From TPA_inf: Saccharomyces (Eukaryota): a stretch of DNA of 64,000 bases. Of this stretch, positions 2 to 33,020 are shown one piece after another. The stretch's first letter is position 1; each line of letters opens with the position of its first letter. The stretch lies in assembly GCA_000146045.2 (NCBI GenBank), contig BK006943.2, positions 384,001 to 448,000 on the forward strand, written 5' to 3'. Position numbers and translations under genes: made by a program. The notes below the pieces were generated by a model, which worked only from the letters and a program-made list of their open reading frames with translations, was not told the DNA's origin and made no database searches.

Positions 2-2149
2 TTAAGAGAATCATCCTTTATAAAACTTACTGAGATCCAAGCCGATTCTATTCCCGTGTCCCTGCAAGGTCATGATGTATTGGCGGCCGCAAAGACAGGT
101 TCCGGTAAGACATTAGCATTTTTAGTTCCAGTAATTGAAAAGCTATACCGCGAAAAATGGACCGAATTCGATGGGTTAGGTGCCCTTATCATATCTCCAA
201 CAAGAGAGTTGGCTATGCAAATATATGAGGTTTTGACGAAAATAGGTAGTCACACTTCATTTTCAGCTGGGTTAGTTATCGGTGGTAAAGATGTTAAATT
301 CGAACTAGAAAGGATATCAAGGATTAACATTCTTATCGGTACACCTGGTCGTATTTTACAACATTTAGATCAAGCCGTAGGTCTAAATACTTCCAATTTG
401 CAGATGCTTGTTCTTGACGAAGCTGATAGATGTTTAGACATGGGGTTTAAAAAAACTCTGGATGCCATCGTAAGCACATTGTCACCATCTAGACAAACAC
501 TTTTATTTTCAGCGACTCAATCACAATCTGTTGCAGACTTGGCTAGGCTTTCCTTGACAGATTATAAAACCGTTGGTACACATGATGTGATGGATGGGTC
601 GGTTAACAAAGAAGCATCTACTCCAGAAACTTTGCAACAATTCTACATTGAAGTTCCTTTGGCAGATAAATTGGATATCCTTTTCAGTTTTATAAAATCA
701 CATTTAAAATGCAAAATGATCGTTTTCTTATCAAGTTCCAAACAAGTGCATTTTGTCTATGAGACATTTAGGAAGATGCAGCCTGGTATTTCTTTAATGC
801 ATTTACACGGTAGACAGAAACAACGTGCTAGGACAGAAACTTTGGACAAATTCAATCGTGCTCAACAGGTGTGTCTTTTTGCTACCGATGTCGTTGCTAG
901 AGGTATTGACTTTCCTGCAGTCGATTGGGTTGTTCAAGTGGATTGTCCAGAGGACGTTGATACATATATCCACAGAGTCGGTAGATGTGCTCGTTACGGT
1001 AAAAAGGGTAAATCTTTAATCATGTTGACTCCACAAGAGCAGGAAGCGTTCCTAAAAAGACTTAACGCTAGAAAGATCGAACCAGGCAAACTTAATATAA
1101 AACAGTCAAAAAAGAAATCCATTAAACCACAATTGCAGTCATTATTATTCAAGGATCCAGAACTAAAATATCTAGGACAAAAGGCTTTTATATCGTACGT
1201 GAGATCTATATATGTGCAAAAGGACAAACAAGTTTTCAAATTCGATGAGTTACCAACAGAAGAATTCGCTTATTCTCTTGGTTTACCAGGGGCCCCAAAA
1301 ATCAAAATGAAGGGTATGAAGACCATTGAGCAGGCCAAAGAAAGAAAGAATGCTCCAAGACAGCTAGCTTTCTTATCAAAAGCAAATGAAGATGGTGAAG
1401 TAATTGAAGATAAGTCGAAACAACCAAGAACAAAATATGATAAAATGTTTGAACGTAAAAATCAAACCATCTTAAGTGAACACTATTTGAATATAACGAA
1501 GGCTCAAGCACAAGAAGACGAGGATGACGATTTCATTTCTGTCAAGCGTAAAGATCATGAAATAAATGAAGCTGAGTTACCAGCTCTAACTCTTCCAACT
1601 TCAAGGCGAGCACAGAAGAAAGCGCTTTCAAAGAAGGCATCTCTGGCCTCCAAGGGTAACGCTAGCAAATTAATATTTGATGATGAAGGCGAAGCCCATC
1701 CAGTTTATGAACTTGAAGATGAAGAAGAATTTCATAAGAGAGGTGATGCGGAGGTACAAAAGACAGAATTTTTAACTAAAGAATCTGCAGTAATGGCAGA
1801 CATTGACAATATTGATAAGCAGGTGGCTAAAGAAAAAAAACAAGAGAAGAAGAGAAAAAGACTAGAAGCCATGAGAAGGGAAATGGAGGCTGCTATGGAA
1901 GAAGAAATTTCTGGAGATGAAGAAGAAGGGAAGACAGTAGCATATTTAGGAACAGGAAACTTGAGCGATGATATGAGCGACGGTGATATGCCTGACTCGG
2001 AAGGCCACTTGAAAAAGAAAGCTAGAACTGTTGACTATTCCCACGGCCACAATCCATCCAATTCAGTTGATGATGACATTATTGAAGTGGAAGAACCACA
2101 AACTTTGGAGGATTTGGAATCTTTGACAGCTAAATTAATCCAGGGTTAA
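2..2149 (+). CDS. HCA4: DEAD-box ATP-dependent RNA helicase Hca4/Dbp4, C-terminal ~715 aa; the N-terminus lies left of the window
   Basis: The frame is open from the window edge. DEAD-box motifs are present: Q-motif FIKLTEIQ, Walker [27 protein letters not shown], followed by a K/E-rich tail. Track ORF 56..2149 begins at GTG, not a real start. Confidence 0.9.
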
Positions 2150-2367: not shown

Positions 2368-3438
2368 TCACTTATGCTGCTCCAGGAGATGTAGGTATCT
2401 ATTCTTTCTTAACGGATCCGCATCTATTAATTGGACCAAATATTGTTCCGAGCTTCTTTCCGTTAGAGCTTCCTTTTCTTCCAGAATATCTTCGAGAACT
2501 AATAAAATTTTCAAGCACCAAATATTTTGCTTCCCGGAAAATTCAATTTCGTCATTATTTATTAACAGAATGTTTTCTCTCAAGTCTTTCAACATTTTAA
2601 GGTACTCTTGTTCGTCCAGAGTTTTACAAACAATGTCGTTTTTAATGAACCACTTGATATAAAACCATACGGATTGGTCTTCGGCGTCGGTAAACATAGC
2701 GTTGATGATATAAGATATTTCAGTCCGAATATACTCCTTTTGATTCCCAACCTCTCCTTTCTGAAACATTCTGCTTATGATCTGTACTCTTTGGTGCCAT
2801 GCAGAATAATTTGAAATGTTATTGTTAATCTTTATTGTTGTGTATTCAAACTCCTCCTTGTCAAGACTTTTATTAGTGATACTCTCTATGTTACCAACAA
2901 CTATTCTGCGGTAATGCCATCCGTGGTAATTTCTTGCATCTTGTTCCAATAACTTATTCACGACAGCAAGTTCAGTTTGCCACACTTTAGGGGAACTCGT
3001 AGGATAATGTTTCAAGACCCAAAGTCTGTGATTCCATATCCAATAGACTTTGGGGTAATCCTTCAATAGCATCATTACAAAAACTAACTCTTTATCCCAG
3101 AAAGGTATTTCCAACTCAGAAGCCAAACTCGCTATAATATCCCTTCTGTAATTCCAAATAGCATTAAATTCCGGATTTTTCTCAAGAAGTTCTGATGTTT
3201 TCTTCAGAGCTTCAATTGAGTAAATTTTTTCATCTCTCATATTCAAAACATTTTCAGTCAAGCTTCTATAATCATATATTTTCTTTTCGTCTTGAACTCT
3301 CTTTTGTCTCAGTAATTCCTTGGTCCACTGTTTCCTTTTAATGCCATGCTGTTTAATGTGGCAAATATAAAAAATTGCTTGGTAGTCAGTAAAAAAAAGA
3401 ATTCATAATGTAACGAACATTTGAAGTGCACATACCAT
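2368..3438 (-). CDS. BET4: Rab geranylgeranyltransferase alpha subunit; two exons: 3436..3438 (ATG only) and 2368..3348; 327 aa
   Basis: The track ORF starts MTENVLNM, but the frame continues upstream without a stop, giving HGIKRKQWTKELLRQKRVQDEKKIYDYRSL. There is no in-frame ATG before that stretch. The minus strand reads ATG|GTATGT at 3438..3430 and the acceptor aaacag ends at 3349. Joining them gives MHGIKRKQW..., which matches my memory of Bet4. Confidence 0.8.
3349..3435 (-). other. BET4: BET4 intron (87 nt), GTATGT donor, CAG acceptor, branch-like TACTGAC
   Basis: Minus strand reads ATG-GTATGTgcacttcaaatg...ttttttttactgactaccaag...ttaaacag-CATGGCATT. Confidence 0.7.
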
Positions 3439-3656: not shown

Positions 3657-4247
3657 ATGTCACAATCAATATCACTAAAGGGTTCAACAAGGACAGTTAC
3701 AGAATTTTTCGAGTACAGCATTAATTCCATTTTGTACCAAAGAGGCGTATACCCAGCAGAAGATTTCGTAACGGTGAAAAAGTACGATCTTACGTTACTA
3801 AAGACACATGATGATGAACTGAAAGATTACATTCGGAAAATTCTTCTACAAGTTCACAGGTGGCTTCTTGGTGGAAAATGCAATCAATTAGTATTATGTA
3901 TTGTAGACAAGGATGAGGGAGAGGTGGTGGAAAGATGGTCCTTCAATGTGCAACACATTTCTGGCAATAGCAACGGGCAGGATGATGTTGTAGATTTAAA
4001 TACAACACAATCACAAATCAGAGCTTTAATCAGGCAAATCACCTCAAGCGTTACCTTTCTGCCCGAACTAACAAAAGAAGGTGGGTACACATTCACAGTA
4101 CTTGCATATACAGACGCGGATGCTAAAGTTCCGTTAGAATGGGCCGACTCCAATAGTAAAGAGATACCTGATGGTGAAGTAGTTCAATTCAAAACATTCT
4201 CTACCAACGATCATAAAGTTGGTGCGCAGGTCAGCTATAAATATTAA
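3657..4247 (+). CDS. MAD2: Spindle assembly checkpoint HORMA-domain protein Mad2 (196 aa)
   Basis: ATG at 3657. The sequence MSQSISLKGSTRTVTEFFEYSINSILYQRGVYPAEDF matches Mad2. Confidence 0.92.
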   Translation: MSQSISLKGSTRTVTEFFEYSINSILYQRGVYPAEDFVTVKKYDLTLLKTHDDELKDYIRKILLQVHRWLLGGKCNQLVLCIVDKDEGEVVERWSFNVQHISGNSNGQDDVVDLNTTQSQIRALIRQITSSVTFLPELTKEGGYTFTVLAYTDADAKVPLEWADSNSKEIPDGEVVQFKTFSTNDHKVGAQVSYKY

Positions 4248-4384: not shown

Positions 4385-6853
4385 TCAAGTGCCTCTGTTA
4401 AAGAACCTTGAGTGAGAAACGAAGTCTTTGACACTCAAACTTTGCTTTTTTTGTTCTTCTTTTTGTTGTTGTATTTGAGGGGTGGATACTATCCTCTTCA
4501 TAACAGGTGGTGATATTTTCAGATCTTGCCTCACAAATTTTGACCAATTCGGATCTTGCATCCTTGCCAAGTTGTTTTCAAATTGACCCAAAAGTACCTT
4601 GTCCCACTTGAATATGAAAAGATCGCGATTACTGTCTGGCCTGCTGCCCTCGTCAGTGTCGTCTGTTTCTAAGTTGTAGGCACTCCATAGCTTTTTCCAT
4701 AATGCCAGGTCCCATGGAATGCCCTTTAAAGCGAGGACAAAAGACCATACCGCTGAATCAGGGTTATTATTGGTCAATTTGGAGTAGGTCTCGTAATAGT
4801 CATCAGCGGAATCCAGAGGAGCCATTAGAAGTTTAATAAACTTCAGCAGCTGGTCTATATTATTGTCTGCATGTCTTTTCACCCTCTTATAAGAGGTATT
4901 TTCTCGCAAGTCAGAATCGTTACTTACACTTTCTGGTAAAGTGTGAAAAATCTCCTTCAGCAATTCTAAATCAAGGAGAAGCTGCTCGCCAATGTTGACA
5001 ACAGTTCTGGTTTCAAATTTCCTTTTGCTGCCCGCCAGGGAAAAGGGTGGAACGGGCTGCAGAAGGCGGATGGTATTGCTTACAAAATTTGTAGTGATGA
5101 TATCAATCACCTTATCCAAGAAATTCCACTTATAAACATCTCTATTGAATTGCGACAAAATAAATGCCAAAGTCGAAGGTTGCTCTTGCTGTTGTTTAAT
5201 AGAGGCATCTGTTAATGCGGGCATTTTAAGTACGGATTTGAGGGTTACCATGTACCTGCTATAATCTTCTATCGCAGCATTTGACCAATCATTGTTGATA
5301 AACTCTCTCCATACAAAATTTAGATCTAAGGGTATGACACGGTTTAATAGAAAAGAAGTTCCTTTTGCTAGTAAATCGTCGTATATATTTTTCGTTTTCG
5401 TAAAACTGTTTGCCAGCTTTTCACGATTACCGCTGAATTCAGATAATTTATCCTCCAATTGATCTATAGTCGTGGCACAATAATCTGCAGTATTGATCAA
5501 TAAAACGGTATACTTGGCAGCTTCTAGCTTATCCTGGACTTCAATATTGTCGGGCAGCAGTAAAGGAAGAAGAATTTTTTGTGAGTAAGTTTGAAGCCAT
5601 CTACTGAAAAAATTTGCCAATGAAGTCAATATGCTATCATTGGCATTATTATCAATGAGCTCTAAGGTCTGAGTCAGTACGGAACGATATGTCCTGAAAA
5701 GGTCTGCACTCGAGGGTAACACGAGAGATTCTGTTTCATTAGATGGGTACTTCGGCTCACTCATATAAGAAAGAAATTTCTTTTCCATCATTTGGTTTTG
5801 GTGAGACACCCATAAAGTCAAATAAGGTTCGAAGCAGGAACTTAGTTTTGGTTCCTTAATTTTTTTTGAAAATCGTACGTCGATGTATTTTTCGAAATCT
5901 AGCGTCGATTGTAATGCTGTCATGAATAGATCAATGGAAGGGTTCTTGTCTTTGAATTCCCTTTTCAGAAGTGTCTGAAGGTCCTTGTGTGTAATGTGAT
6001 AAAAAGTGGTGGTCAATCTGACTGCCATTTCCCAGTCTTTTAAGAAATAGTCTGCGAACTTTGAATTGAAGTTATTAAGAATTTTTTTGAAGTAAATGTA
6101 TCTTCTCGATAAATTTTCTAGGGATCCGGCTTCATCGTCGACCCTAAATATCTCTTTCATTTCGAAGAGAAGTTTGTCCAAACACCAATCTATCATCTGG
6201 GCTCTCGTACTTGTATCGCAGTCGAGTAGCTCGCAGGCACCTTCGCGCAATTCCATAGTGAGTGCTGTATCATGCTCTGAGATATTGCCGCCGGAAAAGA
6301 GCGCATTGTAGTTTTGTTTAATTTTGGACAAAGTGTCTCCTTTCAGTCTTGAAATGGAGCTCAACAAATAGTTTATCTCGTCCAATGATTTGTAAGAGAT
6401 GAATGTGTTTTCAGCAAGCGAACACATTATCTTATAAGGGGACACCATTTTTTTGAATGAGCCCTGTGAGAGTAATTCATTGCATTGTATGTAACTGTCT
6501 GTCAATATCTTTAAATTTTGGAAAAGAGTCAAAGAGTGGGTGAGGTTTTTCTTGGCAATGTCCAGGTACGAGATACCTTCTGTCAGATTCGATATCGTCA
6601 ACTCGGTGGAGGCTGAGACATCTTGAGTTTCTTTGAAATCTTGGAAAACTTTCCTCAGAGAAGCCTCTATTTCAGCGGAATTTTTAGGGTGTTCCTTCAA
6701 TTCATTCTCTTCTTTGAGAATATCCTCTTGCAATTGCTTTTTGTAGCTTCTGGTAATACTGATCAGTTCATCTATGTTGTTCAGGGATTCTTTTGAAAAA
6801 AGTATATTGGTAATATCTTCCAGCGGGTCATAATCTACCGTACCTTCCAGCAT
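4385..6853 (-). CDS. VPS53: GARP complex subunit Vps53 (822 aa)
   Basis: 822-aa ORF beginning MLEGTVDYDPLEDITNILFSKESLNNIDELI. Start is cat at 6851-6853. Confidence 0.88.
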   Translation of the reverse strand: MLEGTVDYDPLEDITNILFSKESLNNIDELISITRSYKKQLQEDILKEENELKEHPKNSAEIEASLRKVFQDFKETQDVSASTELTISNLTEGISYLDIAKKNLTHSLTLFQNLKILTDSYIQCNELLSQGSFKKMVSPYKIMCSLAENTFISYKSLDEINYLLSSISRLKGDTLSKIKQNYNALFSGGNISEHDTALTMELREGACELLDCDTSTRAQMIDWCLDKLLFEMKEIFRVDDEAGSLENLSRRYIYFKKILNNFNSKFADYFLKDWEMAVRLTTTFYHITHKDLQTLLKREFKDKNPSIDLFMTALQSTLDFEKYIDVRFSKKIKEPKLSSCFEPYLTLWVSHQNQMMEKKFLSYMSEPKYPSNETESLVLPSSADLFRTYRSVLTQTLELIDNNANDSILTSLANFFSRWLQTYSQKILLPLLLPDNIEVQDKLEAAKYTVLLINTADYCATTIDQLEDKLSEFSGNREKLANSFTKTKNIYDDLLAKGTSFLLNRVIPLDLNFVWREFINNDWSNAAIEDYSRYMVTLKSVLKMPALTDASIKQQQEQPSTLAFILSQFNRDVYKWNFLDKVIDIITTNFVSNTIRLLQPVPPFSLAGSKRKFETRTVVNIGEQLLLDLELLKEIFHTLPESVSNDSDLRENTSYKRVKRHADNNIDQLLKFIKLLMAPLDSADDYYETYSKLTNNNPDSAVWSFVLALKGIPWDLALWKKLWSAYNLETDDTDEGSRPDSNRDLFIFKWDKVLLGQFENNLARMQDPNWSKFVRQDLKISPPVMKRIVSTPQIQQQKEEQKKQSLSVKDFVSHSRFFNRGT

Positions 6854-7041: not shown

Positions 7042-7114
7042 ATGCTCCAGGGGAGGTTCGAACTCTCGACCTTCAGATTATGAGACTGACGCTCTTCCTA
7101 CTGAGCTACTGAAG
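7042..7114 (-). tRNA. tM(CAU): tRNA-Met (CAU) elongator, 73 nt
   Basis: Reverse complement is GCTTCAGTAGCTCAGTAGGAAGAGCGTCAGTCTCATAATCTGAAGGTCGAGAGTTCGAACCTCCCCTGGAGCA. The anticodon loop is CTCATAA and a T-run lies downstream. It is identical to the copy at 38937..39009. Confidence 0.93.
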
Positions 7115-11930: not shown

Positions 11931-12592
11931 TTATTGCCCCGTTGCCCATTGTGCAAATCCGCCTTGAGCAAACGCTTGTAGTGCGCTTCCAAATCCAGTG
12001 GACGTTAGTCTTCCAATTTTACTATCTGTGGACTCGGCAGCTTTGTTGAGTTCGTCAACAGAAGCAACTATTCTGTTCACATTTGTTTCAATGACCATGC
12101 CCCCCTGCACGATTTCTTCTAATACACTTTCCAAAGTTTGCCAGTTAAAAATCAAATCAAGTTCATTGACTTCAGTAAAACAACGGTCCAATGATTCCAC
12201 AAAAGTTTGGATCAGATCTAATATGGCCAGTTCTGATTCTTGATCATCCACGATGAAAGTGAAATATAGTGTAGCGTAGTTTTTATAGATGATTTGAATA
12301 TCTTCATTGTTTACCTCATCATTATTATTTTCATTGCTTAACAGAAGCGATGGTGGCGTGACTAAAAAAGAACTTTGAAAATCGCTATTCCTTTGAGAAA
12401 TCAATTCATATACTTGCTCTAATAGCAGTTTTTGCTTTGGAAGGTCGACCGGCGTGTAGAATTTCACTAATCTTGGTTGGCATTTCTTATTGACTATACC
12501 AAAAATGATGAATTATGTTAGTAATGTATAATTTTGGCAGAAGAAAAGACCCTTGAGAAATCTTACATACATATTAGAACTGCATGAATCAT
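11931..12592 (-). CDS. APS3: AP-3 adaptor sigma subunit; two exons: 12571..12592 and 11931..12493; 194 aa
   Basis: Track ORF 11931..12467 is an internal piece. Exon 1 is ATGATTCATGCAGTTCTAATAT (reverse complement of 12571-12592), followed by GTATGT. A TACTAAC branch lies at 12518-12524 on the minus strand. The acceptor is tatag, ending at 12494. Splicing gives MIHAVLIFNKKCQPRLVKFYTPV... Confidence 0.85.
12494..12570 (-). other. APS3: APS3 intron (77 nt) with GTATGT, TACTAAC and TAG
   Basis: Canonical yeast splice signals read on the minus strand. Confidence 0.8.
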
Positions 12593-31930: not shown

Positions 31931-32036
31931 TGAAACGGACAGGAATTGAACCTGCAACCCTTCGATTGCAATCTTATTCCGTGGAATTTCCAAGATTTAA
32001 TTGGAGTCGAAAGCTCTACCATTGAGCCACCGCTTC
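31931..32036 (-). tRNA. tW(CCA): tRNA-Trp (CCA) with a 34-nt intron, 106 nt
   Basis: Reverse complement is GAAGCGGTGGCTCAATGGTAGAGCTTTCGACTCCA-[intron]-AATCGAAGGGTTGCAGGTTCAATTCCTGTCCGTTTCA. Confidence 0.9.
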
Positions 32037-32499: not shown

Positions 32500-33020
32500 T
32501 TCTATTTCAAATAAAAATCAACTATTACCTATCATCTAGCATTCATATTACTTGTATATTATCATATCTGTAAGAAGATGACATGAATGATGAGAAATAG
32601 TCATCAGACTTAATAAAAGCCGAAATTCAAGGTCGATAATGTAATAGGATAGGGTGTTGAATGACAATGTATAAAAGGAACGAAGACAGAGTAATACTAT
32701 TATGTAAGAAATACCGATTCCCTTGTGAGTATATAAACATAACCATTTCATTAAAATAATTTATTCAATGGTATGTATGATATTATAATAACATACTTAT
32801 ACTTGTCTCACTCTGTTCATAAACGCAACAATACAATTACTTTTGAATATTATCTTTAATAAATACACTTAGTAGTTACCAATAAATAATAAAATCCTTT
32901 ACTAATACTAATATAAGGATTTCTATGTTCTCGAGGAGAACTCGTAGTATGTTCTGTATCCCTAATATTGTAGCCCTTAACAACAATGGAATACGAACAA
33001 TTTTCTTAATATTCGGCTAT
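32500..33020 (+). mobile_element. Degenerate delta-like solo LTR (Ty1/Ty2 family) carrying an internal insertion of about 190 bp
   Basis: The 5' end aaatcaactattacctatcatctagcattcatattacttgtatattatcat...gatgagaaatagtcatc and the 3' part ctcgaggagaactcgtagtat...cctaatattgtagcccttaacaacaatggaata align by eye to the canonical delta. Confidence 0.6.

Follow-up and report, generated by a model that had tools for sequence, protein, structure and literature searches.

The gene for the alpha subunit of Rab (type II) geranylgeranyltransferase, BET4 (YJL031C), occupies positions 2368..3438 on the minus strand of the window, the 64,000-nucleotide stretch of Saccharomyces DNA analysed here. Its neighbourhood includes a DEAD-box helicase ORF (56..2149, plus strand), a HORMA protein (3657..4247, plus strand) and a Vps53-like ORF (4385..6853, minus strand), and the order of the neighbouring genes agrees with the surroundings of BET4 in related genomes. 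A second gene with an intron is found at 11931..12592 of the minus strand. Its ATG is located at 12592, its first exon has 22 nt, its intron (12570..12494, minus strand) is canonical, measures 77 nt and carries GTATGT, TACTAAC and TAG, and its second exon spans 12493..11931. The encoded 194-aa protein, MIHAVLIFNKKCQPRLVKFYTPV..., looks like an AP-3 sigma subunit and is tentatively APS3-like. Rfam also matches a 106-nt tRNA at 31931..32036 (minus strand, 56.4 bits) that ARAGORN did not report; it has a CCA anticodon followed by an insert, which makes it a probable tRNA-Trp gene with an intron. A further five tRNA genes of the window lie at 7042, 12726, 30965, 38937 and 40431.

The start codon of BET4, an ATG at 3438..3436 of the minus strand, makes up the whole coding part of exon 1, which in the RNA consists of the 5' UTR plus this ATG, and the coding share is therefore exactly 3 nt, as in the class of genes with an AUG-only first coding exon. 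No further ATG is found on the minus strand from 3560 to 3438. The spliceosomal intron, with 87 nt, covers 3435..3349 (minus strand). Its 5' splice site, the consensus GTATGT at 3435..3430, lies directly 3' of the ATG, and both together form ATGGTATGT at 3438..3430. The branch site, TACTGAC at 3391..3385, departs from the strict consensus UACUAAC at position 5, where A is replaced by G, and its branch A, at 3386, is located 37 nt before the last intron base. The 3' splice site is the CAG at 3351..3349, the first usable AG after the branch A, an acceptor being taken as a YAG roughly 10 nt or more downstream of it. Exon 2 (3348..2368, minus strand) runs from His2 to Lys327 and the stop codon (2370..2368), and contains the Pfam PPTA repeats and the region aligned with the rat protein. 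Along the minus strand, the order is ...GTCAGCA, ATG, the intron from GTATGTGCAC through TTTTTTTTACTGACTACCAAGC to CACATTAAACAG, and exon 2 from CATGGCATTAAAAGG onwards. An earlier note on this DNA, made from the letters, had placed the junction between ATG and GTATGT and the CAG at these positions and had read the branch site as TACTGAC, and all three are exact on the minus strand.

With the ATG joined to 3348..2368, the CDS measures 984 nt and encodes a protein of 327 aa that begins with MHGIKRKQW (MHGIKRKQWTKELLRQKRVQDEKKIYDYRSLTENVLNMRDEK...). The intron has what characterizes a U2-type intron: a 5' splice site, a variant of the branch heptamer that keeps the branch A, a YAG, and a restored conserved frame. 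Besides the CAG acceptor, it contains one AG only, with its G at 3378; this AAG was considered as an alternative acceptor and rejected, because 8 nt separate it from the branch A, its use would shift the frame, and it lacks conservation in S. uvarum. The possibility of a structured or embedded RNA inside the intron was rejected as well. The single-sequence fold of the intron has z = -0.29 and shows no significant structure, the consensus fold of four Saccharomyces species has -0.65 kcal/mol with covariation absent, and the Rfam search of the window returned tRNAs only, with no RNA embedded in the BET4 intron.

Excision of the 87 nt yields exactly the sequence deposited in a public protein collection as [quoted passage not shown], which is also named there "Geranylgeranyl transferase type-2 subunit alpha". 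The proposal of the earlier note, a one-codon first exon and an intron whose removal restores MHGIKRKQW, is thus borne out by a 327-aa product identical to S288C Bet4. In annotated S. cerevisiae genomes, BET4 has a gene span of 1071 nt and a product of 327 aa, which implies an 87-nt intron. The comparison with the SGD gene model that the note had suggested gives the same answer, since the SGD/RefSeq entry for BET4 (YJL031C; 327 aa, two exons) has the identical protein, the same span and the AUG first coding exon, with no difference.

Bet4 matches the PPTA repeats of Pfam PF01239 in four stretches, with 128.3 bits against a cut-off of 29.5 and E = 1.7e-38. Its alignment with the rat RabGGTase alpha subunit starts at residue 1 and has E = 2.6e-40, against 8.6e-19 for FTase alpha, and by these comparisons Bet4 is clearly nearer to RabGGTase alpha than to FTase/GGTase-I alpha. 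The rat/mammalian RabGGTase alpha (PDB 1DCE, 3DSS, 4EHM) has a PPTA-repeat helical domain and an MHG N-terminus, as Bet4 does. The full-length rat alpha (567 residues, 1dce_A) aligns to Bet4 over residues 1-237 only, whereas the rat alpha chains of 330-334 residues in PDB align with Bet4 nearly end to end. The extra segment of the rat alpha corresponds to the Ig-like and LRR domains, which are missing from yeast Bet4.

Alone, the motif ATGGTATGT is not significant: 0.53 copies are expected per shuffled window, two are observed, and at least two copies are found in 10 of 100 shuffles. The second copy, at 32768..32776 of the plus strand, was examined as another one-codon exon and rejected as a chance match, as no ORF lies downstream of it; it is located in ORF-free, AT-rich, LTR-like DNA beside tRNA genes and works as a negative control for the motif. 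The arrangement GTATGT-N(20-50)-TACTRAC-N(8-38)-YAG, which is expected 0.03 times per shuffled window, is found twice, in BET4 and at 12494..12570 (minus strand).

Orthologous loci were compared in S. paradoxus, S. uvarum, S. kudriavzevii, Vanderwaltozyma polyspora, Lachancea quebecensis, Torulaspora globosa and Eremothecium sinecaudum. An intron directly after the ATG is found in all seven of these Saccharomycetaceae loci, its excision reproduces the deposited protein each time, and every one of them comes with a 5' splice site, a branch site and a YAG of its own. The AUG-only first coding exon is therefore also present in seven other yeasts, and the position of the intron is common to eight species with S. 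cerevisiae included. The gene models of the other yeasts may be homology transfers from S. cerevisiae, while the splice signals in their DNA are independent observations. The introns measure 88 nt in S. paradoxus, 92 nt in S. uvarum, 94 nt in S. kudriavzevii, 172 nt in V. polyspora, 58 nt in L. quebecensis, 70 nt in T. globosa and 61 nt in E. sinecaudum. The ATG with GTATGT (AATGGTATGT) is invariant across the four Saccharomyces species of the sensu stricto alignment; elsewhere the 5' splice site is GTATGT in V. polyspora and T. globosa, GTAAGT in L. quebecensis and GTATGG in E. sinecaudum. In Komagataella pastoris, BET4 is without an intron and reads ATG CAC GGA (ATGCACGGA).

In S. cerevisiae, S. 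paradoxus, S. uvarum and S. kudriavzevii, the TACTGAC heptamer and the 37-nt spacing are identical, and the more distant genera have TACTAAC or AACTAAC instead. The 5' half of the intron accumulates substitutions and indels of 6-7 nt among the four species. A U-run and AUUUGCCAC form conserved blocks adjoining the branch site, and within 3355..3397 (minus strand) the blocks TTTTTTACTGACT and ATTTGCCAC are invariant in the four Saccharomyces species, with no RNA structure that accounts for them. The acceptor is also invariant in the four as a YAG, and is TAG in S. uvarum and S. kudriavzevii. In these two species, and in V. polyspora and T. globosa, the TAG of the acceptor is an in-frame stop that abuts exon 2, so that read-through from upstream cannot reach exon 2 in any of the four.

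Other yeast loci show different starts. In Arxiozyma heterogenica (L013:601-645), BET4 is intronless and starts with ATG-CAG-CAT-GGA (MQHG), which corresponds to the ATG, the last three bases of the S. cerevisiae intron (CAG) and exon 2. Such a start may have been left behind when the intron was lost imprecisely or the acceptor shifted, or MQH may be the older state, given that it is found in 22 retrieved homologs, Candida species among them. At the BET4 locus of Candidozyma auris (L014), the gene span exceeds by 48 nt the need of the 369-aa product, and no single-intron placement yielded the deposited protein.

The N-terminus restored by splicing is conserved. HMMER aligns residue 1 of Bet4 to residue 1 of the rat RabGGTase alpha (MHGRLKVK...) and residues 2-37 to residues 2-37, and 46 of the 134 retrieved protein sequences start with MHG, S. 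cerevisiae entries counted and basidiomycete homologs among them. Some yeasts (Arxiozyma/Kazachstania-like, and Candida species) have the MQHG start, so the His is not necessarily residue 2 exactly. Residues 2-37 are conserved as well as the remaining Bet4, and the variable columns at codon positions 1, 2 and 3 number 9, 3 and 16 in codons 2-37, and 57, 39 and 182 in the rest of the CDS; this bias to the third position, as in the rest of the CDS, indicates that residues 2-37 are coding. According to the earlier note, the frame stays open for 31 codons upstream of an internal start, MTENVLNM. Between the TTG at 3261 and a TGA upstream of it, at 3405..3403, the open stretch has 47 codons, 29 of exon 2 and 18 of the intron; moreover, the first residue of MTENVLNM is no Met, as its codon is a TTG, Leu31 of Bet4, which an ORF finder using table 11 (bacterial) prints as M.

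The first true internal ATG is that of Met38 (3240..3238, minus strand), with which an obsolete 290-aa model of BET4 starts (MRDEK...). In a reading without a functional intron, the contiguous ORF would be translated from this codon into the historical 290-aa protein, which is the longest ATG-initiated ORF that can be obtained without splicing. Public data still carry the 290-aa sequence on 624 contigs, from many S. cerevisiae strains, where it is called Rab geranylgeranyltransferase or alpha subunit of type II geranylgeranyl transferase, and it falls in the same protein cluster as the 327-aa Bet4. Met38 is nevertheless specific to S. cerevisiae: S. paradoxus, S. uvarum and S. kudriavzevii have Leu at this residue, and the seven other yeasts all have their next Met at residue 90-93; the model also discards residues 2-37, with their conservation, their third-position-biased substitutions and their alignment to the rat protein. 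On unspliced RNA, the ATG at 3438 opens an 11-codon ORF only (MVCALQMFVTL*) and seven ATGs with ORFs of 2-15 codons precede Met38, which makes such RNA a poor template for any form of Bet4. The reference annotation and the published tables use the spliced model, and translation from Met38 is considered very improbable. That the splice-like signals are a chance juxtaposition in the 5' leader, with no role, is harder still to credit. The second ATGGTATGT in non-coding DNA and the shuffles with at least two copies would fit such a view, but the complete arrangement of 5' splice site, branch site and 3' splice site is rarely expected by chance, the restored frame gives a conserved N-terminus, and the intron position is shared by eight species, comparative data by which this view is already refuted.

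A further alternative accepts the intron and takes its splicing as deliberately inefficient or regulated: UACUGAC would leave a fraction of the pre-mRNA unspliced, tuning the dosage of Bet4 against Bet2, and the unspliced RNA would either decay or serve as a template for short peptides or the 290-aa form. TACTGAC, the T-run, ATTTGCCAC and the 37-nt spacing do not vary among the four Saccharomyces species, while the 5' half of the intron does; this is consistent with it, and so is the TACTAAC or AACTAAC of distant genera in place of TACTGAC. The same heptamer accompanies conditional splicing in SUS1 intron 1 (PMC4338336), the score of BET4 is low in the part of PMC3226532 Table 2 retrieved, and Bet4 is subject to dosage control at the protein level (PMC7652333). 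On the other hand, UACUGAC is among the non-canonical branch sites given as 'No difference' in the Prp40 WW-domain preprint, an in vivo splicing screen with a prp40 WW-domain mutant allele, four close relatives have little power to tell constraint from recent ancestry, no structure is conserved in the intron, and the literature search returned no documented intron retention for BET4. Regulated splicing of this kind is judged unlikely. The narrower idea that UACUGAC, the U-run, AUUUGCCAC and the 37-nt spacing are under selection in Saccharomyces, with a sub-optimal or condition-dependent splicing that throttles the dosage of the RabGGTase alpha, is likewise doubtful; if true, it would mean a post-transcriptional throttle alongside the known protein-level dosage compensation of Bet4.

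The preferred reading, an ordinary 87-nt U2-type spliceosomal intron exactly between the AUG and codon 2 (CAU, His), is almost certain, and is based in this analysis on the signals, the frame, the identity with the annotated protein, and the conservation of the intron position and of MHG. Primary descriptions of yeast introns are reportedly those of Davis et al. 2000 and Spingola et al. 1999. In vivo splicing, the MH- N-terminus of Bet4 and the contact of the rat His2 with zinc are taken from the literature. BET4 is one of four example introns in a preprint on MPE-seq kinetics (10.1101/2020.10.13.338152), which plots its pre-first-step and lariat-intermediate counts over time, and these counts indicate that the intron is spliced in vivo. 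The N-terminus, for which the earlier note had proposed mass spectrometry, has been covered by N-terminal proteomics, in which Bet4 is an "MH-starting protein" with detected N-acetylation (PMC7652333).

In the text and the retrieved part of Table 2 of PMC3226532, the first coding exon of BET4 is given as "3, AUG", among 20 such yeast genes, which include BOS1, DCN1, MND1, MPT5, QCR9, RPL30, RPL35A/B, RPS17A/B, RPS24A/B and RPS27A/B, so that such an exon, contrary to the earlier note, is not unusual in yeast. Like BET4, the other genes of this class have a phase-0 intron exactly after the initiation codon. Most of those listed encode ribosomal proteins; BET4 differs as a non-ribosomal, low-abundance gene whose intron is short and whose branch site departs from the consensus. 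In the retrieved part of that table, BET4 has the second lowest PWM score, 4.30, and this score and the non-consensus branch site suggest that the splicing of BET4 may fall short of full efficiency. The note was right that TACTGAC is not canonical but overstated its oddity, as SUS1 intron 1 has UACUGAC as its documented non-consensus branch point (PMC4338336). The two introns share this heptamer; set against SUS1 intron 1, which is conditionally spliced, BET4 has the consensus GUAUGU. Existing annotation and publications thus already cover the gene model of BET4, the branch-site variant and the group of genes with an AUG-only first exon, and the present result is a re-derivation of the existing annotation, with nothing new biologically.

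In yeast, U1 pairs with the GUAUGU of an intron, and the branch site is bound first by Msl5 and afterwards by U2. In the BET4 pre-mRNA, U1 recognizes the consensus GUAUGU, and Msl5 and U2 recognize UACUGAC, in which the change from A to G at position 5 of the heptamer would exchange an A-U pair with U2 for a G-U wobble without disturbing the bulged branch A. The wobble and the intact branch A would explain why UACUGAC works. The acceptor is the first AG that can be used, at a distance of 37 nt from the branch A on its downstream side. Since splicing sets His2 directly after the initiator Met, the native protein requires it. In Rab GGTase, His2 of the alpha subunit is the fourth ligand of the catalytic zinc, which sits in the beta subunit, and the contact, which FTase and GGTase-I lack, is auto-inhibitory (PMC9141697). 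It is described for the rat enzyme and, for yeast Bet4, is predicted by homology; in yeast, His2 probably extends to the zinc in the Bet2 beta subunit, as in rat. The invariant weak branch site, its neighbouring blocks and the 37-nt spacing in Saccharomyces might hint at tuned splicing.

Truncated models, the 290-aa one among them, abound in public annotations of S. cerevisiae strains and in metagenome-style gene calls, often with starts such as MRQKR... or MKRKQW..., and in this respect the warning of the earlier note that ORF finders easily miss the exon was well founded. Further BET4 models of 204 aa and 320 aa (MWTKELL...) are found in S. cerevisiae strain annotations (P0009, P0011), and these look like pipeline artefacts or strain-specific truncations. 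The 37 residues lost in the 290-aa model include His2, which is zinc-binding and auto-inhibitory in the rat enzyme, so work built on that model would miss a mechanistically relevant element. The correct N-terminus of Bet4 hinges on the recognition of a 3-nt coding exon, at which automated annotation still errs.
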